DNA of 64,000 nt from an uncultured Clostridia bacterium (GTDB taxonomy: Bacteria > Bacillota > Clostridia > TANB77 > CAG-508). Under the pieces are notes generated by a model. It saw nothing but the letters and a program-made list of their open reading frames with translations, ran no database searches and had not been told where the DNA came from. The stretch spans positions 31,731 through 95,730 of the forward strand of contig CANQGE010000001.1 in the NCBI GenBank assembly GCA_947601495.1, in the 5' to 3' direction. The position numbers and the translations under genes were made by a program. This document shows, one piece after another, positions 2,591 to 58,600 of this stretch (positions are counted from its first letter, which is position 1; every line of letters starts with the position of its first letter).

Positions 2591-3967
2591 CTAATATCTC
2601 CTGCCATAAGGGTCTGATGGTCCCAAAACATGTAGTTCTTCTTCATCTTCTTCGTCTTTACTTTGTGGTTTTTCTGCTGGTTTTTCTGTTGGTGTTTCTT
2701 CAGGTGTTTCTTCTTTTACTTCTTCTTCAGCTTCTGATTTTTCTCTTGCTTCTATTTTGTCCATTATTTCGTCTCTTTTGCCCATATCTGTTTCAATTTC
2801 TGATCTAATTGTAGGAAGTTTTAATCCATATTTATCAAATAATTTTAATCTATCATCATTGATTTCTTGCATTTTTTCGATTTTTTCTGCTTTTGAAAGA
2901 TTTGTAACATTTTTTATTGAATCTTGTTTATTTTCTAATTCTTCTAAGTTTTGTGCCAATAATTCCTTGTCTTCTCTTCTTAAGTCTCTAGGTTCAGTAA
3001 CTAAATCTGCAACTATTTGATGCCCGTCCATATCTTTATAATATACTTTCGTACCTTTATCTTCCGCATTATCAACTACAGAAGCAGTTTTATATTCATC
3101 CATTACTTTTGTTGCATCTTCATCATATCTTCTTTCATCTATAACTCTTTCACCTTGTACAAATACTATTCTGTCATTTCCTGTTGAAATATCTCCACTA
3201 GAAAAAGCTAAACAATAAACTGGTCCACCATTATCTTGTAATCCTGCTGTATCAATTAATTGATCTGAAATGCTAGAAGGATTTCTTGCTATTAAAACAT
3301 GTTTTAAAGTTGCACCTTCTCTTTCTTTTATTTCATCTACTTTATCTTTTACATTTTCTGGTATGTTTACTTCTTCTTCCTCTTTTTCTTCTTCTGAAAG
3401 TTCTGCATCTTTTTCCTTAGTTTCTTCTTCCTTACCTTTATCTCTTTCCTCTTCTTCTCTATCTATTTCTTTTACTTGAAGATTTGGATTATTTTCTTTT
3501 ATTTTTTTAATAGTTTCTTCTTCATTTTCGGGAATTAATGTATCTTCTGCTATTTGTTTTTCCATTTCTTCTGGGGAATCTGGAAATAATGCATTTTCGA
3601 CTTCTTCTACTGATACATTTGCTTCAACTGCATATTTAAATACTTGTTTTTTCATTCGTGGAGTTAGCATAAAATTTTGTGAGTTTTCATCATCACCAAT
3701 AAAATCAACAGCCATATCTTCACCTTTGTCATTTACAGTTAATATTTGTGTTTCTCCATTTGGTAACAATATTTGAACTTTTCCAATTTTTTCTACTGTT
3801 CCGTCTCTTTTTTGAATTTCTTTTACTTCTACTAAATCAATATTAGATGGATCTATATCTCTTACCCTCATAGTTTTTTTACCATCTGATGATACATATG
3901 TATCTGCATTTTCATAAACTTTTGCAAGTAAAAATTGTCTTTGTAAATAATTATCTATATCGTTCAT
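2591..3967 (-). CDS. hypothetical, highly acidic protein
   Basis: 458-aa ORF with an AAGGAGA RBS. It has long E/D/K-rich blocks, no signal peptide or TM segment, and no motif I recognise. Confidence 0.6.
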   Translation of the reverse strand: MNDIDNYLQRQFLLAKVYENADTYVSSDGKKTMRVRDIDPSNIDLVEVKEIQKRDGTVEKIGKVQILLPNGETQILTVNDKGEDMAVDFIGDDENSQNFMLTPRMKKQVFKYAVEANVSVEEVENALFPDSPEEMEKQIAEDTLIPENEEETIKKIKENNPNLQVKEIDREEEERDKGKEEETKEKDAELSEEEKEEEEVNIPENVKDKVDEIKEREGATLKHVLIARNPSSISDQLIDTAGLQDNGGPVYCLAFSSGDISTGNDRIVFVQGERVIDERRYDEDATKVMDEYKTASVVDNAEDKGTKVYYKDMDGHQIVADLVTEPRDLRREDKELLAQNLEELENKQDSIKNVTNLSKAEKIEKMQEINDDRLKLFDKYGLKLPTIRSEIETDMGKRDEIMDKIEAREKSEAEEEVKEETPEETPTEKPAEKPQSKDEEDEEELHVLGPSDPYGRRY

Positions 3968-21837: not shown

Positions 21838-21991
21838 TATCTAATATAGTTTATATAATTTAAAGGTAACGCGTAAGCGACCAACCGAAGCGAAAGCGAA
21901 GGGCGATTGGAGCAATCTTCATTTTGTTAATTTTAAAAAAAGAAGATTGCGACACCAAGTTACCGATAAATTATATAAACTATATTAGATA
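21838..21991 (-). repeat. long-hairpin element A: 25-bp perfect AT stem + 98-nt GC-rich core (copy 1 of a 2-copy family)
   Basis: The inverted repeat 21838-21862 / 21967-21991 is perfect. Core 21866-21963 is 91/98 identical to the reverse complement of 44554-44651. It contains a 9-bp helix GCAATCTTC/GAAGATTGC. The strand given is the one sharing sense with copy B. Confidence 0.85.
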
Positions 21992-22045: not shown

Positions 22046-22075
22046 AATAAAAAACTCGGAACAAATCCGAGCTTT
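22046..22075 (-). terminator. rho-independent terminator after rpsO
   Basis: Stem CTCGGA / TCCGAG (22055-60 / 22066-71) followed by UUUUUU on the minus strand. Confidence 0.75.
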
Positions 22076-22078
22076 TAA

Positions 22079-25699: not shown

Positions 25700-25733
25700 A
25701 AAATCCTCCTAAAAAATTTTTTAATTTAATTTT

Positions 25734-25922
25734 TTATTAACTATATAATATAACTGAATTGCAGCTATCGCTTTTGAAAGTAATTGAGTTAGAATTGCTT
25801 AATATATTTTACGGAAAGAGTTCACAAACTTGTGGAAGGGTGCCGTAAAATGTATTTAGCAATTCTACGAAAATTAGCTTGAACAAGATAGCGAAAATGA
25901 AGTTATATTATATAGCTAATAA
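25734..25922. repeat. long-hairpin element C: 189-nt imperfect palindrome with GC-rich tip
   Basis: Outer arms TTATTA(A/G)CTATATAATATAACT (25734.. / ..25922). Apical stem TAGAATTGCTTAATATATTTTACGG (25790-25814) / CCGTAAAATGTATTTAGCAATTCTA (25843-25867) has 2 mismatches. The 28-nt tip AAAGAGTTCACAAACTTGTGGAAGGGTG is about 46% G+C (about 50% with the flanking ACGG/CCGT pairs). Confidence 0.75.
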
Positions 25923-25967
25923 AGCTTATTTCTAAGTAAAAGTTTTTAAGCAAAAGTATATTTTTAA

Positions 25968-31251: not shown

Positions 31252-32484
31252 TTGGATGGAATTTTAGGAATAGTATCTGAATATAATCCTTTCCATAATG
31301 GACATCTACATCATTTAGAACTTTCTAAAAAAATAACTAAAGCAGCTTTTACTGTTGTTGTTATGAGTGGAAATTTTGTTCAACGTGGCGATACCTCACT
31401 TATAAACAAATGGGTAAAAACAGAAATGGCATTAAAAGCTGGTGTTGACTTAGTAATTGAACTTCCTACAATTTACTCAATTTCTAGTGCTGAAAATTTT
31501 GCTGATGGCGCAGTAAAAATTTTAAATAGTTTGGGAGTTGTAGATTATATTTCTTTTGGAAGTGAAATTGGTGAAATAAGTCCTTTAAATGATGTTGCAA
31601 ATATTTTATATAGAGAGCCTAAAGAATTTTCTTCTTTAATTACTGCTCAATTAAAATCAGGTCTATCTTATCCTAAAGCAAGAGAAATTGCCCTTTCGCA
31701 ATTTTTTGGAAGTTCAAAAATATATTCAGAAATTCTAAACAATCCAAATAATATCTTAGGTGTTGAATATTTAAAATCTTTAAAAAAACACAGAAGTCAC
31801 ATAAGACCACTTACAATAAAAAGAGATTATAATGACTATAATGATAAAACAGAAAAAAGCGGAATCGCAAGTGCTACAGCTATTAGAACAATGATTCAAG
31901 CAGGTAAAAATGTGCATTATGTTGTACCTTATGAAACATACGAACTTTTGGATCAAGAAATAGAAAACGGTAGAATTATTAAAGATTTATCTGTTTTCGA
32001 AAAAGAAATAATTTATACATTAAGAAAAATGACTTTATCTGAAATAGCAAATTTACCAGATGTTTCTGAGGGATTAGAAAATAAAATAAAATTAGCAGCA
32101 AACACATGTAATAACCTTGAAGATTTAATCAAAAAAATAAAATCTAAACGATATACTCAAAGTAGAATTCAACGTATTTTATTATATGCTCTTCTTGAAA
32201 TTTCTCAAAAAGATATGAATTCTTCTAAAAAAGTAAATCCATATATTAGAGTTTTGGGATTTAATAAACATGGAAAAAGAATTATTTCTGCAATAGCAGA
32301 AGCAAATCCAAAACTAAACATTATAGTATCTGTAAAGAAATTTATGGAAAATTCAAATGACAATTCTTTAAGAAATATGATTTCAAAAGATATATTAGCT
32401 ACAAATATTTATACTTTAGGTTACAAAGCAGACCCTATTGCAAACTTAGATTATACTCATAAAGTAATAGAATATAATGAATAG
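31252..32484 (+). CDS. tmcAL: tRNA(Met) cytidine acetate ligase (YlbM/UPF0348 nucleotidyltransferase)
   Basis: 410 aa; N-terminal GIVSEYNPFHNGHLHHL is typical of the family. TTG start after a GGTGGTGA RBS. One of only two plus-strand genes. Confidence 0.85.
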   Translation: MDGILGIVSEYNPFHNGHLHHLELSKKITKAAFTVVVMSGNFVQRGDTSLINKWVKTEMALKAGVDLVIELPTIYSISSAENFADGAVKILNSLGVVDYISFGSEIGEISPLNDVANILYREPKEFSSLITAQLKSGLSYPKAREIALSQFFGSSKIYSEILNNPNNILGVEYLKSLKKHRSHIRPLTIKRDYNDYNDKTEKSGIASATAIRTMIQAGKNVHYVVPYETYELLDQEIENGRIIKDLSVFEKEIIYTLRKMTLSEIANLPDVSEGLENKIKLAANTCNNLEDLIKKIKSKRYTQSRIQRILLYALLEISQKDMNSSKKVNPYIRVLGFNKHGKRIISAIAEANPKLNIIVSVKKFMENSNDNSLRNMISKDILATNIYTLGYKADPIANLDYTHKVIEYNE

Positions 32485-43090: not shown

Positions 43091-44377
43091 ATGAAAATTT
43101 TAATGCTATCATGGGAATATCCACCAAGAGTTGTTGGAGGTATATCAAGAGTGGTTTATGACTTATCACACAAATTATGTATGCAAGGTCATAAAGTTAC
43201 CGTTATTACTTATAAAGATGGTAATGTACCATATTTTGAAGATGATGATGGTGTTGATGTTTACAGAGTAGATAATTTTATGATTGCTCCTAATAATTTT
43301 ATAGATTGGGTTATGCAACTTAATTTCAATATGATAGCAAAAGCTGGAGAAATTATTGCACAACAAGGAAACTTTGATGTTATACATGCTCATGATTGGC
43401 TTACTGCTTATGCTGGAAAAACATTAAAATTTGCATATAATACTCCTCTTGTAGCTACTATACATGCTACTGAAGCTGGTAGAAATAGCGGTATTAGAGG
43501 TGATATGCAAAAATATATTAATGATACTGAATGGATGCTTACTTATGAATCTTCAGAAGTTATCGTTAATAGTAATTATATGAAAAACGAATTACAAAGA
43601 CTTTTTGGTCTTCCTTATGAGAAAATAAATGTAGTACCTAATGGTGTTGATCTTACTTTATTTAATGGAATTGATAGAGACTATGAATTTAGAAGAAGAT
43701 TTGCCATGGATAATGAAAAAATTATTCTATTCATGGGTAGATTAGTTTATGAAAAAGGTATTCAAACACTTATTTCTGCTATGCCTAAAATCTTAGACAA
43801 TTATCATGATGCAAAATTAGTTATCGCAGGAAAAGGCGGAATGATTAATGAATTAAGAAATCAAGTTAATTTCCTTGGATTAGGAAATAAAGTTTATTTC
43901 ACAGGACACTTAGCTTCTAAAGATGTTCAAAAAATGTACAAGTGTGCTGATGTTGCTGTATTCCCTAGTACATATGAACCTTTTGGAATTGTAGCTATTG
44001 AAGCTATGCTTTCTGGAACACCAGTAGTTACTTCTGATGTTGGTGGATTAAATGAAATTGTAGAACATGGAGTAAATGGAATGAAAAGTTATGCTGGAAA
44101 TCCAAACTCTCTTGCAGATTCTATTCTTGCATTATTATTTAATCCAGAATTATGCAACACAGTTTCAAAAAATGCAAAAGAAAAAGTTAAAGCTCAATAT
44201 AATTGGACTAAAATTACAGAAGAAACTCACTTCACTTATGAAACAGCTATTTGTGAAACTATTGCAGAAAGACAAAAGAAACAAATTGCTCAAGAAGAAG
44301 CTCGTAATCAAATTAAAAAATCTAAAGAAGTTACAAACCTACTTTCATTCAAGAAAACTCACGAGGCATTTGCATAA
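43091..44377 (+). CDS. GT4-family glycosyltransferase (glycogen synthase-like)
   Basis: 428 aa. N-terminal MKILMLSWEYPPRVVGGISRVV and the C-terminal E-x7-E region (STYEPFGIVAIEAMLSGTPVV). Divergent from the GH57/DUF4912 operon. Confidence 0.8.
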   Translation: MKILMLSWEYPPRVVGGISRVVYDLSHKLCMQGHKVTVITYKDGNVPYFEDDDGVDVYRVDNFMIAPNNFIDWVMQLNFNMIAKAGEIIAQQGNFDVIHAHDWLTAYAGKTLKFAYNTPLVATIHATEAGRNSGIRGDMQKYINDTEWMLTYESSEVIVNSNYMKNELQRLFGLPYEKINVVPNGVDLTLFNGIDRDYEFRRRFAMDNEKIILFMGRLVYEKGIQTLISAMPKILDNYHDAKLVIAGKGGMINELRNQVNFLGLGNKVYFTGHLASKDVQKMYKCADVAVFPSTYEPFGIVAIEAMLSGTPVVTSDVGGLNEIVEHGVNGMKSYAGNPNSLADSILALLFNPELCNTVSKNAKEKVKAQYNWTKITEETHFTYETAICETIAERQKKQIAQEEARNQIKKSKEVTNLLSFKKTHEAFA

Positions 44378-44408
44378 GATTTTAATAAAATATGTTTATA
44401 ATAATATA

Positions 44409-44445
44409 AAAACTCTTAGGAATTATTTTCTTAAGAGTTTTTTTG
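44409..44445 (+). terminator. rho-independent terminator after the GT4 gene
   Basis: Stem AACTCTTAGGAA / TTCTTAAGAGTT (one mismatch) followed by TTTTTT. Confidence 0.75.
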
Positions 44446-44454
44446 ATAAGAAAA

Positions 44455-44521
44455 ATTGCTTAATATTATTAACATTGCTTAATAATATTATTAAATATTA
44501 ATCAATACTATTAATCAATAC
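44455..44521. repeat. two pairs of short tandem direct repeats
   Basis: ATTGCTTAATATTATTAAC / ATTGCTTAATAATATTATTAA (44455-44494), then TATTAATCAATAC x2 (44496-44521), abutting the left arm of element B. Confidence 0.7.
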
Positions 44522-44527
44522 TATTGT

Positions 44528-44677
44528 GAATGCTTAAAAAATATAATTTAATAGTAACTTGGTGTCGCAATCTTCTTTTTTATAAATAAACAAAAGGAAG
44601 ATTGCTCCAATCGCCCTCCGCTTATGCTTCGGTTGGTCGCTTACGCGTTACTATTTAATTATATTTTTTAAGCATTC
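44528..44677 (+). repeat. long-hairpin element B: second copy of the 98-nt GC-rich core, inverted relative to element A
   Basis: Core 44554-44651 is the reverse complement of 21866-21963 at 91/98 identity. The outer stem GAATGCTTAAAAAATATAATTTAATA / TATTTAATTATATTTTTTAAGCATTC is 26 bp with one mismatch. Confidence 0.85.
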
Positions 44678-44714
44678 ATAATATTTTTTGCAATTAATTT
44701 TAAAAATTATTTTA

Positions 44715-44975
44715 TTACTTCTTTTTGAGGTAAAGAAAAAGAACTCTTATTTGAGTTCTCCGTAACATTTCTTCTAATATTTTCTCTGCTACTATCAAAG
44801 GTGTTTGTTTTGGATTTGGTATTGCGCTGATTTTCTCCAAGTATTCTATTTGTTTCTCCCTCGGAAGCTTTTGAGCTTTCTCTACCATATTGTCCAAATA
44901 TTCCATTCGTTCCTTTTCTGTTCTCTGAAAACTTGTTAGACAACTGAATATTGTTCCTGATGGGTAATATACCAT
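44715..44975 (-). CDS. hypothetical small protein in a locally GC-enriched patch (reading frame uncertain)
   Basis: 86-aa ORF with an ATG preceded by AGGGGAAG at good spacing. The helical-looking segment is MEYLDNMVEKAQKLPREKQIEYLEKISAI.... A second frame (44707..44943, TTG start) is also open. G/C-ending codons are more frequent than in neighbouring genes. Confidence 0.3.
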   Translation of the reverse strand: MVYYPSGTIFSCLTSFQRTEKERMEYLDNMVEKAQKLPREKQIEYLEKISAIPNPKQTPLIVAEKILEEMLRRTQIRVLFLYLKKK

Positions 44976-45006
44976 TATTTTTCTTCCCCTTTAATCATTA
45001 ACATTA

Positions 45007-52223: not shown

Positions 52224-55200
52224 TTATAATATCCTCCTTAGTACTTTAACAAAATTAACTAAATATGCATTTGTAATTCTTGGCCATATAAACAAACTTT
52301 TTATTAAATATTTGATTGTAAAGTTTGATTTTATTTCCATCTCAGTATTATATTGTATATGCATGTTTTCATCAAAATCATCTATAATTATTTTTAACAA
52401 GTCTTTTGTTTCTTCGTTTTCTAACATATTATTTATTTTATCTATAAATTCTTTTTCTGGCAATACCTCTATTGGATAATTTAATTTTTTTAATACTCTT
52501 AAGCATCTTGATACAGTTACTGTTTTTTGATTGCATAAATGAAATACCCTATTTGAATCGGTTTTATGAGTTATTATTTTACATACAGATTTTGCAGCAT
52601 AATCTACTGGTGTAAACTCTAATTTATTATGCAACATATATTCTGGGATAATTTTTATTTTTACAAATGATGCCAATCTATTAAGAAATGCATTATCTGA
52701 TAAATTCTCTTGAAATAATCCATCTTTATAGCGGGGCATCAAATTTCCCATACGTAATATGTAACCATCTAATCCATTACTTATTGCCTCTAAAATTTGT
52801 ACTTCTGCTTTAAATTTAGTATATGTGTATATGTTTTCAGGATCTTGTCCTATGTATAAATCTGATTCATCAAATGTTACTTTTTTCTTTTTCAAAAGTT
52901 TTGGATAAGAATTATCTAATGTTCTTCCAGCTACACCCATTGTAGAAATATGGTATAGCTTTTTATTAAAGCTTTTACAAAAATCTATAATATATTTAAC
53001 ACTAACAACATTTGTGTTATAGAAATCATTATAATTTCCATAATGTGCAACATTTGCAGCACTATTTATTACAATATCTATAGAATTTGCTAAATTTAGT
53101 AAATCTTCTTGATTTAATCCAAAACCTGGTTTTAATATATTTCCATTAATTACAAAAATTCTATTATTTAATAAGTTATCATATTTGTTTCCAAAATAAT
53201 AATTTAACTTTTGATGTAATTTAGCAACTGCTGTAATTCCAGGTTCATCTCTAACAATGCAATAAACATTTGTATTTTTGTAATCTAAAAGTTTTCCTAA
53301 AATGTGAATCCCCAAAAATCCAGTACTTCCTGTTAGCAAAATATTTTTTGGATAGCATACATTTATTTTTTCACTTTTTTTACTTTTTTTCAATACTTTT
53401 ATGAAATTATCTGATAAATTTTGCACTTTTTCAAACATACTATTTTTATTACCAGATTCTATTATTTGTGTTAATTCAGCTACACTTGGATAGCGGAAAA
53501 TATCTTGATAAGTAAGATTACTTGTTATTTTTTGTAATTCAATATTTAAGTTCATTGCTAATAGTGAATCTCCACCCAATTCGAAAAAGTTATCATTTAT
53601 ACCTACTGGTTTAGTATTTAATATCTTTTCAAAAAATGAAACTAATTTCTTTTCTAAGGCCGTTTTCGGTGGTACATATTCATTTTTACTACTATTTAAT
53701 ATTTCATTTGGTAATGGAAGAGATTTCTTATCTATTTTTCCATTTGGAGTATATGGAAGGTCATCTAGTGAAACATAATATGAAGGCACCATATATCTTG
53801 GAAGTGAGCGAGATAAATAAGTTCTAAGGTCATTTATAACAACTCTTTTCTTAGTTACAAAATATGCTGATATAAATTCTCTGCTTTGCATTACTTGTTT
53901 TACAACAACTGCTTTTTTTATGTTTGGATATTTTAAAATTAGTGATTCTATTTCTTCAAGTTCTATCCTTAATCCTCTAATTTTTATTTGATGATCTGAA
54001 CGTCCTAAGCAAATAATGCTTCCATCTGGTTCATATTTTCCTAAATCTCCACTCTTATACATTAATACATTAGGCATAAATGGATTTTTAATAAAGCTTT
54101 GATCTGTAAGTTTTTTATTGTTTAAATATCCCTTTCCAACACACTCACCTGATATGTATATATCTCCAACTATTCCTACTGGAACTGGATTTAGTTTTTT
54201 ATCTAATATATACATTTGTGAATTACTAATTGGTGTTCCTATTGTTATTATTTCTTTATCCATTTTAGATAATGTACAATAGTGAGTTTCACTTGGTCCA
54301 TATCCGTTATAAACAACTATATGTAACTCTTCTAGTTTTTTTAAAATGTTTTGTGGTAATTGCTCACCCGCAAGTATTACATATTTCAAATTTTTAAGTT
54401 CTGGCATTTCTTCTAAGTTATTTAAGAAAATCTGCATAACAGATGGTGTTGATTGTAATACTGTTGCATTATGTTTTTCTATTAAATTATTTAATAATTG
54501 TGGTGTTGTTTGTTCATTTTCGTTTGATATTACAAGTTTTATACCTCTTTGTAAAGAAATAAGTGATTCATATACGAATAAATCAAAGCTTATTGTTGTA
54601 ATAGAAATAATAGTATTATTTTCTGGTTCTTTTAAATAATCTACATTGTTATTACAGTAATTTGCAAAATTTGATATAACTCTATGTGGAATCATTACTC
54701 CTTTAGGCTTTCCGGTTGAACCTGATGTGAATATGCAATATATTAAGTCTTCTGGCTCATTAACACATGGTAAATTTTCTATGCATTTTTTATATTTTTC
54801 ATTAATACCATCTATACATATTGTATTTGAAAAATTAAGTTTATTTTTCAAATGCTTTTGAGTTAATAAAATTTTTGCCTTGCTATTTTCAAGCATATAA
54901 TTAATTCTATCTTCAGGATATGTTGGATCTATTGGAATATATGCTCCTCCAGCTTTAATTGTGGCTATCATTGCAATTATAACTTCTATTGAACGATTTG
55001 CCATAATGCCAACAAGACTATTTCTAGTAATTCCTTCATCTCTTAAAAAATGTGCCAAAGAATTTGCTTTTTCGTTTAAATCTTTAAAAGTTATTGTAGA
55101 ATTTTCAAATGCTACTGCTATATTATTTGGCGTTTTTTCTACTTGTTCTTCAAATAGTTGAATTACAGTTTTATTTTTTTCGTATTCTAAATTTGTATTG

Positions 55201-55685
55201 TTAAAATCAAATAAAATATGATTTTTCTCCGCTTCTGGAAGAACACATATATTTTCAATTTTTATTTCAATATTTTCTAATATAGTATTTATTATTTGCA
55301 AATAATGACAAGACATGTTTTTAATAAATTCTTCACTAAAGAGCTTTGTTGCATATTCAAAAGAAAGCTTTATTTCATTATCTTGTGGAAAAGCTTCTAA
55401 TGATAAATCAAATTTAGATATTTCTGCATCTAATAAATTATATGTTGCTTCCATTCCATCAAAATTAATATTAGAATAATGATTATTTTGATATATAAAC
55501 ATTACATCAAATAATGGATTTCTACTAATATCTCTTTTTATATTTAACTTATTAACAAGTGTATCAAATGGATACATTTGATATGTGTATGCATTTAACA
55601 CATTTTCTTTTACTTTTAAAATAAATTCTTTAAAACTTAAATCTTCTTCTACTTGATTTCTTAAAGCAAGAGTGTTAACAAACAT
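52224..55685 (-). CDS. non-ribosomal peptide synthetase, 3' fragment: C-terminal half of C domain, A, T, terminal thioester reductase (R)
   Basis: 1153 aa. A-domain cores are [25 protein letters not shown] and PNGKIDKK; T is FFELGGDSL. The R domain has [15 protein letters not shown] (NAD(P) Rossmann) and a YxxxK-type site. Confidence 0.9.
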   Translation of the reverse strand: [1153 protein letters not shown]

Positions 55686-58600
55686 ACCAATTATTTTTTG
55701 TAGTTCTATTCTGTCTCTTCCTACAATTGGCGAACCAACAATTATATCTTTTCCGAGAAGTATATTTTGAAAGTAATATGTAATAACATGATAAAAGTAT
55801 CATATATGGTGTCACATCTAATGATTTAGCCAAATCGTTTATTTTTTCTAATGTTTCTGAATTAATAGAAGAATAAATTTTCTTTCCTTCAAAAGATTGT
55901 ACTGCTGGTCTTGGATATGTTGTTGGTAAATTTAATACTGGAATTTCATCATCTGTTTTAAATTCGTTTAACCAGTAATTTTCTGCCTCTTTAAAAGAAT
56001 CTGTTTTCAAGTATTTTTCTTCATAAGCAGTAAAATCTTTATAAGTAATTTCTAAATCTTCTAATGAATTATTATTATATAAATTCATTAATTCTTCTGC
56101 TAAAATTGATAAAGATGCTCCATCAGATATAATATGATGCATATCTACTAATATTGCAGATTCATCATTTGTAAATTTAATAAGTTTAGTTCTAAATAAT
56201 GGTGCTTCGCTTAAATTAAATGGTTTTATAAATTTTTTATAAATATTTGCAAAATCTTTTAAATCTGCATGTTTTTCAATATCTAATTTAAAATCTACAC
56301 TAGGTATTATTTGTGTGACTACATCTTCCTCATGTATAACGAATTTTGTTCTTAAGCTTTCATGTCTATTTATTAAATCTTTAAAAGCTTTTTCCAATCT
56401 TTCAAAATCAACATTTCCTTTTATCATGATGCTTCCAGGAATATTATATAAAATGTTGTTTTCTCCTGCTACTTTACTTGCATAATATATTCTTTTTTGA
56501 GCAGATGATAAAGGATAGAATTCTGCTTCTGGTATTTTTTCTAATGTAATCACATTGCTATTTTTAGTTTTTTTACTTATTACATCAGACAAATCTTGTA
56601 TTATAGGATTTTCAATTATATCTCTTGAAAGTATTTCAACATTAAATTTATTTTGAATTTGTATGCTTAAATTTATTGCATATAATGAATCTCCGCCTAA
56701 GTCAAAGAAAGAATCATCCATACTAACTTCTGAAATATTAAACTGAGATTTAATTAATTTAATTAATTCATTATCTATTTCATTTCTAGGTAAAATTATT
56801 TGTTTATATGTTGTTTCATATTTTGGTTCTGGTAATTTTTTTCTATCTATTTTTCCATTTGGAGTATATGGAAGATTTTCTAATTCTACAAAATATTGTG
56901 GCACCATGTATGCAGGTAAAAATTTTTCTAAATGTTTACGAATTTTATCTGCTTTAATGCTTTCTTTAGAAGTATAATATGCACATAAAAACTCATGTGA
57001 ATTTTCATCTACTTTTTTCACTACAACACAAGAATGAATTTCTGATAATTCAAGAATTTTATCTTCTATTTCTCCTAGTTCAATCCTTAATCCTCTAATT
57101 TTTACTTGATGGTCAACACGTCCAAAACAAGTAATATTTCCATTTGGATTATATATACCAATATCCCCAGTTTTATACATAATAGTATTTGGTATAAATT
57201 TATTATTTATAAAACTTTTATCTGTTAATTCTTTATTGTTTAAATATCCTTTTCCAACGCCATCACCGGAAATATATATTTCACCTGCTACTCCAATAGG
57301 CAATAAATTTTGATTATCATCTAAAATATATATTTGAGTATTATCTAAAGGTTTTCCTATTGTTATTTCACTATTATTCATTTTTGTTAATGTGGAAAAT
57401 ACCGTTGTTTCACTAGGTCCATATCCATTATAAATTGTACAATCACATATTTTATTTAAACTGTTTACTAAGTGAAGTGGCAATTGTTCACCTGCAAGAG
57501 TAATATATTTTAAATTCTTTAAATGTGGTATTTTATCTATATTATTAACTAATAACTGCATTCTAGAAGGTGTAGACTGAATAATTGTTACATCTTCTTT
57601 TTCAATTAATTTATTTAATAAATTTGGATCTGTTTGTTCTTTTTCATTTGCGATAACAAGTTTTAATCCTTTTTGTAGTGATATAAGTGTTTCAAAAATA
57701 AATATATCAAAACTTACTGTTGTTATTGAAACAACAGATTGATGAGATGGATTTTTTAAATATTCAATATAATGGTTACAATAATTTGTTAAATTTGATA
57801 ATGCTTTATGTTTTAGCATAACTCCTTTAGGAAGTCCTGTTGAGCCAGATGTGAAAATAACATAAGATAAATCATCTGGCTTATTTATTTTTTCTAAATT
57901 AGAAGAATTTGAAGAATAAATTGCATTATCTAATTCAGTAAATACTTTATTGCTAAATTCTACTTTGTCATCTAATTTCTTTTGAGTAAGTAATACTTTA
58001 GCTTCACTATTTTTAAGCATATACTGTATTCTATCTTCAGGATATGTTGGGTCAATTGGAATATAGGCCCCTCCTGCTTTTAAAACTGCTAAAATTGAAA
58101 TAATCATTTCAAGTGAACGATTATCCATTATTCCAACTAAATCATTATTTTTTATATTTTTGCTACTTCTTAAATAATATGCTAAACTATTTGCTCTTTT
58201 ATTTAGTTCATCAAATGTTAAAGAATCATTTTCAAACACTAGTGCTATATCATTTGGAGATTTTTTTACTTGTTCTTCAAATAAATTTACAATTGTTTTA
58301 TTTTTTAAATATTCTACATTTGTATTATTAAATGAATTTAATATTTTTAATTCATCTTCTGGAATTATTGTTATATCTTTTAATAAAATATCTGGTTTTG
58401 AAATTATTTGATTTAAAATATGCAAAATACGATTATGCATAGTTTCTATTTCAGACTCGCTATATTTATCTATTTTATAGTCATATGCAATTTGAAGAGT
58501 ATTCTGCTCATTCCATTCAAAAATGTGTATTTCCATATCATTTAAAATAGATTTATTGAAAATCCAACTTGTTTTATGTGGCAAAATATCATTATTTTCA

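Follow-up and report, generated by a model that had tools for sequence, protein, structure and literature searches.

The 64,000-nt stretch of DNA analysed here (hereafter the window; positions 31,731 to 95,730 of contig CANQGE010000001.1, assembly GCA_947601495.1, from an uncultured Clostridia bacterium) carries two copies, A and B, of a previously undescribed non-coding repeat of about 160 nt that is dispersed between the genes of an AT-rich lineage of uncultured gut Clostridia. The repeat unit is the whole hairpin, in which an arm of about 36 nt is followed by an asymmetric, GC-rich core of about 88 nt and a second arm of about 36 nt; the core is made up of a clamp helix (P1), a hairpin that varies between copies (P2), a helix of 7 bp that is fixed and has a CCCUNCGC loop (P3), and a tail that is likewise fixed. 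The element is multi-copy and strictly intergenic, occurs in both orientations and is gained or lost between strains of one species. It has been copied to new loci together with its arms, it is found amplified in tandem, and its orientation may differ at an orthologous site. The interpretation that we favour, and consider probable, is that it represents a new family of short non-coding dispersed repeats, similar to REPINs and to transposable elements of the miniature inverted-repeat type (MITEs), that has spread in the manner of selfish mobile DNA.

In the window, which is very AT-rich, a repeat finder pairs 21853-21976 with 44541-44664 over 124 nt at 90% complementarity, placing the two copies in opposite orientation, and core segments of 18 and 26 nt each occur exactly twice, compared with 0 occurrences expected by chance. 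Pairwise alignment of A and B shows identity that runs from ATATAATTTA through the GTAAC...GTTAC clamp and ends about 13 nt outside it, beyond which the outer 12-20 nt are wholly different. Each of these unrelated-looking outer stems is self-complementary: the arms of copy A are 94% complementary according to the repeat finder, and those of copy B have 35 matches over 37/37 nt in an anchored extension alignment with a strict extension score. The original prediction, made from these two copies alone, was thus right that the copies are real and that their differing outer stems are each self-complementary; it placed copy B at 44528-44677, which is the right site, although slightly short, as the arms reach 44522-44683. 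Folding of the whole hairpins gives -56.2 kcal/mol for B and -55.7 kcal/mol for A, with z scores of about -10 relative to dinucleotide shuffles, and the opposite strand of copy B folds as well (-55.7 kcal/mol, z -10.9). The core of B was delimited from the alignment with A, from the family alignment and from an nhmmer match at 44536-44657 (E 2e-34), and that of A has a corresponding match at 21980-21859 (E 4e-33).

Scanning a genome collection containing one genome per species with a pattern in which P3 was fixed returned 62 loci, 50 of them from AT-rich Clostridia metagenome-assembled genomes (MAGs) and carrying the element, the other 12 being GC-rich chance matches. A single rabbit-gut MAG, CANQYM01 (Lapin-015 bin83, hereafter bin83), accounts for about 39 matches in the loci fetched (numbered here with the prefix L), and further copies came from other rabbit MAGs, one goat-ileum MAG and other uncultured Clostridia. 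A profile built from the collected copies found extra ones in the same loci that lie outside the scan pattern, and a metagenome scan leaving five P3 pairs free yielded an additional subfamily of 11 copies, bringing the number of distinct sequences overall to 75, all of them taken from MAGs or from contigs of metagenomes. Among named organisms, the host's closest relative is one with a PNPase of 92% identity, labelled by NCBI as Candidatus Scatovivens faecipullorum. Two scans of viral contigs gave GC-rich chance matches only, and a distant blastn search of plasmid and phage collections gave no match. Rfam 15, searched with the whole window at gathering thresholds, reported tRNA only, and a permissive search over both copies (E up to 10) added only a sub-threshold Plastid-psbA hairpin and terminators. 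Using open reading frames (ORFs) of at least 100 aa as proxies for genes, none of 64 copies lies inside a gene. Being short, non-coding, multi-copy and polymorphic for insertion, the element has in these respects what is expected of a MITE.

The clearest case of gain or loss is the site of copy A between rpsO and pnp. Two loci of the same species as the window, L077 and L078, with a PNPase 99% identical to that of the window, do not have copy A, and their rpsO-pnp spacer measures 259 nt, that of the window 474 nt. Copy A falls within an indel of about 215 nt, to either side of which the alignment is clean, and the strains with the empty site keep the rpsO terminator followed directly by the pnp leader, with neither a palindrome nor any outer-arm sequence. 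The indel is edged by an imperfect direct repeat of 9-10 nt in low-complexity DNA (AGCAAAAAT / AGCTAAAAAT versus AGTAAAAAAT), which may have arisen by target duplication or may have served as substrate for a deletion. For copy B, relatives were taken by way of homologues of the neighbouring GT4 glycosyltransferase. The copy is present in the window and in bin83 (L028, flanks of about 94-96% identity), and is absent from relatives with a GT4 protein 92% and 87% identical (L011-L014). Their spacers, of 134 and 59 nt, contain no outer-arm halves and no palindrome, and are too diverged for an exact junction to be placed. At both sites, therefore, the absence of a palindrome and of outer arms from the empty site argues against insertion into pre-existing palindromes.

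The arms themselves point in the same direction. Within a copy, the 5' arm and the reverse complement of the 3' arm are near-identical for about 36 nt (median 36, mostly 32-41), and over all copies the arms are about 91% matched, with 1558 matched columns, 114 mismatches and 33 gaps. More than 40 nt from the core, the complementarity of the flanks is no better than between unrelated copies (mean score 9.56 vs 9.5), and the extra complementarity outside copy A, with a score of 13.5, is below the 95th percentile of unrelated pairs (14.0) and not significant. The inner 22 nt or so of the arms follow a consensus, TATATATA-NN-TTTTA-TNA-GTGAC (also written ..TATATATA.TTTTA.T.A.GT.AC), while the outer 14 nt or so are variable, with TTCTTATAG / CTATAAGAA recurring in a subset of copies. 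A and B thus carry divergent descendants of a single ancestral arm, the shared consensus fading outward. Moreover, the whole arm is common to the two copies of L044 (a and b), which lie 5 kb apart in one contig, and likewise to L021 and L046 from two different MAGs, with different flanks in both cases, so that the arms evidently travel with the core.

These findings bear on the suggestion, put forward in the original prediction, that a small core module inserts into the centre of existing AT-rich palindromes, in which case the outer stems would be target DNA. The wholly different outer stems of A and B would fit such a process, as would the flank of the window just outside A, which resembles an arm of the copies in L080-82 as if one hairpin lay within another, and the duplicated 3' arm with a degenerate core remnant in L067. 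However, the empty sites are not palindromes, the length of the arms is constant and their complementarity stops by 40 nt, and the outer arms carry a motif common to the family and accompany the core to other loci. We regard the insertion of a module into palindromes as largely refuted and give it a very low probability.

A second explanation in the original prediction, that a long closing helix is under selection, fared better in part. As a pattern, a helix is indeed maintained, as is evident from the matched arms and from the covariation of P1 described below. The pattern by itself does not speak for selection at the level of RNA: in the closest pairs of copies, changes are mostly confined to one arm, and template switching could restore pairing neutrally. 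Mismatches in the arms show no excess of G.U on either strand (23 vs 20) and so lend no support to selection acting on the RNA of one strand. Within the three pairs of most similar copies, most differences are one-arm changes; L044 a/b has one properly compensated change, seen by eye and missed by the register of the script. From these comparisons, resident copies seem to decay and not to be corrected. The copies that look youngest, in L019, L036 and L072, have perfect arms (34/34, 34/34 and 36/36), and it seems that arm complementarity is established among those copies from which new ones descend. Template switching is known to homogenise and lengthen the arms of inverted repeats, to yield multi-base changes that appear compensatory, and to invert spacers (PMC8794818, PMC8604942, PMC13100816).

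Two further observations concern the arms. At position 5 from the outer end, the mismatches of copy B and of its counterpart in L028 mirror each other at one and the same arm pair, with G facing T in the window and A facing C in L028, as though the arms had swapped places; together with the inversions of the core described below, this hints at recombination or template switching within arms. In L067:850-1100, a copy is followed by about 42 nt with a degenerate core fragment (..TTTCCGCTTATGCAC..) and then by a second 3' arm, which matches the 5' arm farther out than the first does. Judging from its arrangement, this locus looks like a nested or partly deleted double insertion.

In the family alignment, the core keeps one order, namely the P1 clamp, a junction C-TTG-N-TG-TC, P2, TCC, CCAATCG as the 5' strand of P3, a loop, CGGTTGG as the 3' strand of P3, TCGC(T)T(A/G)CGC as the tail, and the 3' strand of P1. 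The P3 loop, CCCTNCGC..GC..TT, contains a mini-hairpin, which has 4 bp in L054, and P2 is highly variable across the family in length and sequence. Counted on the alignment columns of 51 sequences, P1 has double changes at 5/5 pairs, and 11 of the 13 pairs of P2 have changes on both sides in at least one sequence. Paired cells amount to 95.6%, against 89.1% in shuffles, and the covariation observed, with 16 pairs showing double changes, was attained in 0 of 500 shuffles. P3 and its flanks are invariant among the copies found with the pattern that fixed P3. When five of its pairs were freed, the only variants were CCAGTCG/CGGTTGG and one TGGTTGG, both still paired through G.U on the sense strand, and P3 is broken in four degenerate copies. 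Of the two motifs named in the original prediction, both of which are present in the window, CGCCCU(N)CGC is kept across the family with U, C, A or G at N, while C(UUCG)G is not conserved as a tetraloop, as UACG, UCCG and UUUG are also present; in the consensus fold it is the beginning of the 3' strand of P3.

This covarying fold is what makes a structured non-coding RNA on the sense strand worth considering, whether serving in cis-regulation or processing or acting as a small RNA, with the closing helix kept by selection on the RNA fold; it was the reading preferred in the original prediction. The high conservation of the P3 region across lineages and the covariation of P1 and P2 would be expected of such an RNA. 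So would the G.U pairing of the only P3 variants and the presence of three conserved T.G pairs on the sense strand (alignment columns 17-124, 35-71 and 86-111), which would become C.A mismatches on the other strand. The predicted folding energy of the core, on the other hand, gives no signal for the choice of strand (-27.2 vs -27.7 kcal/mol), and with predicted stability equal on both, either strand may be the one that folds in vivo, despite the T.G pairs. Hammerhead, twister, pistol, hatchet and HDV-like layouts, compared by eye, did not fit, a judgement backed only by the Rfam negatives.

The orientation of the element with respect to genes argues against an RNA-level role. Among 55 copies with genes on both sides, 18 are tandem and sense, 19 tandem and antisense, 12 divergent and 6 convergent, and the upstream gene runs in the direction of the element in 24 cases and against it in 31; after removal of orthologous duplicates and tandem copies, our own count is about 16 sense versus about 16 antisense. 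The original prediction had taken the agreement between the sense of A and B and their upstream genes as favouring a role in RNA, and this agreement is a coincidence of two cases. Its author had also foreseen that random orientation and non-complementary flanks in additional copies would speak against it; in the main family, the orientation is indeed random, and the flanks are still complementary. The metagenome subfamily might be the one place where an orientation bias exists, with 7 sense and 2 antisense copies in co-directional spacers, although this is not significant and the numbers are too small to call; pooled with the main family, the count is 25 sense to 21 antisense. In nine loci of the subfamily (L085, L092, L105, L107, L115, L118, L126, L128 and L131), the element fills nearly the whole of a short co-directional spacer, with the core 11-26 nt from the upstream stop codon in several loci and the end of the element 34-49 nt before the next start codon.

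Such a placement, 7/9 sense and ending shortly before a start codon, would suit a structured RNA. Against this, orthologous copies differ in orientation and are gained or lost between strains, the genes downstream are functionally unrelated (from reading of their N-terminal sequences, we take them to be DHFR, GatA, RlmN, MnmE, GrpE, LepA, MurG and HrcA), there is no Rfam match even in the permissive search, promoter-like sites are not above chance (5 vs 3.2 expected and 3 vs 2.7 expected, none conserved in the core), a U-tract is not general, and neither the arm mismatches nor the stability of the core favour one strand. Taken together, a structured RNA seems to us an unlikely explanation. A leader or riboswitch of one pathway was rejected on the grounds of the unrelated downstream genes and the 18:19 orientation, and a general intrinsic, bidirectional terminator on the grounds that a T-run follows copy B, the copy in L028 and a few others, with most copies having none.

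Orientation differs even between orthologous sites. When L073 (bin83) is compared with its orthologue L037 (Lapin-032 bin102), both flanks align reversed and the element aligns forward, so that the core has been flipped; L073:5590-5785 contains a single copy, and in L037:2428-2874 three copies stand head to tail with their arms in common, each of them inverted with respect to the flanks. Similarly, in L080-82, with a PNPase of 97% identity, the copy in the rpsO-pnp spacer is antisense to rpsO and has different arms, which the flank of the window just outside A resembles. In these contigs (L080:818-1500, L081 and L082), the spacer measures 636-683 nt and the antisense copy is flanked by AT-rich tandem arrays. 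One array is built of TTATTTA-type units and the opposite one of a unit of about 21 nt (GAATATAAAAATTAATTTAAA), repeated a different number of times from contig to contig in these arrays.

These inversions raise the possibility of an inverton family, in which the 36-bp inverted repeats would serve as recombination sites and the core would be flipped to alter local expression. A short asymmetric segment between inverted repeats, both orientations at one orthologous locus in two MAGs, opposite orientations in the rpsO-pnp spacers of two lineages and an overall orientation of 1:1 are all features that such a system would have, and the first two are those by which invertons are recognised. The other two by which they are recognised, an internal promoter and a dedicated recombinase, were not found: promoter-like sites in the core are not above chance, and no recombinase gene recurs near copies. 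In addition, the arms, as the would-be recombinase sites, are the least conserved part of the element, and in any case long inverted repeats would be expected to give rise to flips from one species to another, through recombination or template switching (PMC8604942). We therefore hold an inverton family to be quite improbable.

An element that is useful to the host irrespective of orientation, for example as a protein-binding site, an RNase III target, a stabiliser of mRNA ends or an insulator, with selection keeping the hairpin, would be compatible with mobility and resembles what has been proposed for REP/BIME, ERIC and Correia repeats. The strictly intergenic location, the nearly complete filling of short co-directional spacers by the metagenome subfamily, and the TTTTTT that follows copy B beyond the GT4 gene's own terminator-like hairpin can be reconciled with such a role, as can the conservation of the core across lineages and its smaller deviation from consensus relative to the arms. 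On general grounds, a perfect 36-bp helix would also be expected to be an RNase III substrate in either orientation. Nevertheless, the element turns over rapidly between close strains, is not found preferentially where 3' ends converge (6 copies, compared with 12 between divergent genes and 37 in tandem spacers), is in most copies without a U-tract, and in its closest pairs shows decay of one arm and not maintenance. A host function as the explanation of the family thus appears unlikely.

Returning to the interpretation of the repeat as mobile DNA, a pathway can be envisioned in which the element spreads in trans by means of an enzyme that recognises the conserved core, probably folded on a single strand. 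This enzyme would need the arms merely as a helix, leaving their sequence free to drift. Complementarity could then be kept because only copies competent to form the hairpin produce daughters, as has been argued for REPINs (PMC3116915), or because template switching during replication re-symmetrises the arms, which can also invert the core; it could also be that the copying itself re-creates one arm from the other. After insertion, the arms would decay slowly through one-arm mutations. Drift of the arms with complementarity kept would explain why the outer stems of A and B look unrelated and yet are each self-complementary. Template switching is a neutral alternative that accounts for the flips as well.

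Several findings weigh against this pathway. No ORF family recurs near copies apart from orthologues of the window's own genes, and thus no transposase, recombinase or reverse transcriptase; a tblastn search with a provisional IS200 TnpA query gave no match with E <0.8 in about 1 Mb of sequence, which includes by estimate about 1/5 of the MAG; and in the same 1 Mb the core was in no case found inside a longer coding element. The single clean pair of filled and empty sites has only the imperfect direct repeat, which fits deletion equally, and a recurrent target duplication is not visible at about 45 other copies. The indel at that site, at about 215 nt, is larger than the 154-nt hairpin of copy A, and its left part is similar to an arm of the copy that L080-82 carry in the other orientation; the rpsO-pnp site therefore has a compound history and not a simple one. 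Classical MITEs and REPINs have conserved ends around a free centre, a layout unlike the present one. Conservation of the core extends over lineages with proteins that are 10-20% different, which a host function would fit too; in bin83, core positions outside the search pattern deviate from consensus by 1.8% per site and the arms by about 4% per site (our own arithmetic), a gap compatible with some purifying selection on resident copies. Movement, moreover, is proposed here from comparison of MAG and metagenome contigs.

A bolder version, which we offer as a possible but doubtful one, is that the core is a new single-strand motif, a module for recognition or cleavage of single-stranded DNA or RNA, possibly a ribozyme or the substrate of an HUH-like enzyme, and that it defines a new kind of mobile element, whose sequence is specified at the centre alone, with one arm re-synthesised from the other in each round of copying by a fold-back or 'rolling-hairpin'-like process. 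If this were true, daughters would be born with perfectly complementary arms regardless of mutations in the template arm, which would explain together the constant length of diverged arms, the near-perfect arms of the youngest copies and their later one-arm decay.

How the element compares with known systems depends on which of its parts is considered. REPINs are hairpin-forming mobile repeats in which compensatory changes are common and tandem clusters occur (PMC3116915). The present element is like them in being short, non-coding, multi-copy, strictly extragenic and found in both orientations, in having a long hairpin as its unit and in forming tandem clusters, such as the three copies in L037. 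As in REPINs, compensatory changes are frequent in the less conserved part of the hairpin, where apparently only length and pairing matter, and REPINs spread in trans and not by a gene of their own (PMC3116915), as is proposed here. The arms of REPINs, in contrast, hold conserved inverted REP 16-25-mers around a free spacer, whereas the present element has free arms and keeps an asymmetric centre of 88 nt; there is no REP doublet of two inverted, conserved imperfect palindromes of 20-40 nt, nor any REP-like palindrome headed by GTAG. REPINs are mobilised by RAYTs (TnpA-REP tyrosine HUH transposases), whose gene is single-copy and usually has the repeats on its flanks; none was found in the approximately 1 Mb searched with a provisional IS200 TnpA query, which is not a full-genome test. 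It may be added that REPINs are known mainly from Proteobacteria.

With ERIC/IRU (127 bp), the Correia/NEMIS repeats of Neisseria, RUP and BOX of Streptococcus and bcr1 of the Bacillus cereus group, the element shares a size of 100-200 nt, an intergenic location, both orientations, a long hairpin and polymorphism of presence and absence between strains. Some repeats of this group are cut by RNase III or RNase E once transcribed. In those families the terminal inverted repeats are conserved and the target duplication is a defined one (TA, or TTTAT in bcr1), whereas here the termini are the most variable part, no consistent duplication is seen and the centre is a covarying multi-helix junction. 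Where a MITE has terminal inverted repeats conserved as binding sites of the transposase, this element has inverted arms of constant length, conserved over about the inner 22 nt and variable over about the outer 14 nt, and an autonomous partner was not found in the sequence searched. Palindrome-associated elements derived from IS200/IS605, and HUH substrates generally, are similar in having imperfect hairpins recognised on one strand (as proposed here), no target duplication, no classical terminal inverted repeats, and conserved wobble or mismatch positions in the hairpins. In contrast to this element, they insert beside a fixed tetra- or pentanucleotide and in one orientation with respect to replication; here there is no conserved flanking motif, no orientation bias relative to genes and no Y1 transposase in the sequence searched. 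Template switching, or quasipalindrome correction, gives a selection-free account of complementary diverged arms, multi-base changes and inversion of the spacer (PMC8794818, PMC8604942, PMC13100816), but it is a mutational process and not an element family, it leaves the dispersal of the unit and the conservation of the core unexplained, and the close pairs here show mainly uncorrected one-arm changes. As the element fails or leaves open the tests for MITEs (conserved termini, duplication and autonomous partner) and for REPINs (REP doublet and RAYT), we file it as a member of neither; it is closest in behaviour to both, with the pattern of conservation inverted.

REP, ERIC and Correia repeats have been known for decades, and for most of them the way they spread and the reason why their hairpins persist are still argued. 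In the family described here, free arms around a conserved, covarying and asymmetric centre separate the requirement for a helix from the requirement for a sequence unusually cleanly, and the dozens of natural replicates, together with filled and empty sites in one species, make it testable whether compensatory changes in long stems come from selection or from template copying, and likewise by which enzyme the core is read. In practice, the element marks variation at the strain level in a gut lineage that is uncultured, and it can break assemblies and be mistaken for a 'structured RNA'. The larger sample also corrects the two conclusions that had been drawn from two copies alone, that orientation follows the upstream gene and that the module inserts into palindromes.

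Table 1. Positions in the window of the two copies, their parts and the adjoining terminator-like hairpins
Feature	Position	Strand	Remarks
Copy B, whole	44522-44683	+	complementary arms included
Copy B, 5' arm	44522..44558	+	37 nt, AT-rich; inner part ATATAATTTAATAGTAAC contains clamp P1; from extension alignment
Copy B, core	44559..44646	+	88 nt: junction TTGGTGTC, P2, P3 with internal loop, 3' tail TCGCTTACGC
Copy B, helix P2	44567..44605	+	GCAATCTTCTTTT / AAAAGGAAGATTGC, A/T loop; predicted in the minimum free energy fold
Copy B, helix P3	44607..44636	+	CCAATCG / CGGTTGG, one T.G pair; predicted by RNAfold and RNAalifold
Copy B, P3 loop	within 44607..44636	+	CCCTCCGCTTATGCTT, holding the 2-bp mini-hairpin GC....GC
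Copy B, 3' arm	44647..44683	+	37 nt, followed by TTTTTT
Copy A, whole	21838-21991	-	hairpin of 154 nt
Copy A, 5' arm	21959..21991	-	33 nt; from inverted repeat, sequence and arm alignment of the near-identical copy L004
Copy A, core	21871..21958	-	88 nt; sense on minus, co-directional with rpsO and pnp
Copy A, 3' arm	21838..21870	-	33 nt; from repeat finder and sequence
rpsO intrinsic terminator	22050..22076	-	from terminator scan and filled/empty alignment; upstream of copy A
Hairpin and T-run just 3' of the GT4 gene	44402..44445	+	AAAACTCTTAGGAATTATTTTCTTAAGAGTTTTTTT; not part of the repeat

Copy A occupies the interval from the rpsO terminator to pnp, on the minus strand. Copy B has on one side the hairpin of the GT4 glycosyltransferase gene, and on the other a small orphan ORF followed by a minus-strand gene of the TraX family. 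From its sequence, we read the hairpin 3' of the GT4 gene (43091-44377, +) as a putative intrinsic terminator of that gene; it is also found in relatives that do not have copy B. A terminator scan of 44380-44800 did not list it, and gave as sole match a minus-strand terminator at 44761-44738. With this terminator-like hairpin upstream of it, copy B lies outside the GT4 coding unit. The orphan ORF (44715-44975, minus strand, 86 aa) has its own terminator-like hairpin, 44761-44738 on the minus strand, and Pfam and PHROG searches with it gave no match. About 240 nt between B and the TraX-family gene (window 44700-45000) are absent from the near-identical MAG locus L028, and in L011-L014 the whole 44700-45000 segment is absent, a second indel adjoining copy B.

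Elsewhere in the window, 53700-58340 holds a tandem duplication of about 3.1 kb with 71-77% identity (repeat families D1, D2, D3 and D7, spacing 3115-3127), presumably with paralogous genes inside. An unrelated, long, rod-like intergenic hairpin of about 190 nt is found at 25733-25923 (plus strand -71 kcal/mol, minus strand -61 kcal/mol), with AT-rich outer arms (TATATAATATAAC...) around a GC-richer centre and no Rfam match. A copy of it with 75% identity is present elsewhere in bin83 (L016:1-186), and the host lineage may thus contain several families that have the layout of AT-rich arms around a specific centre.

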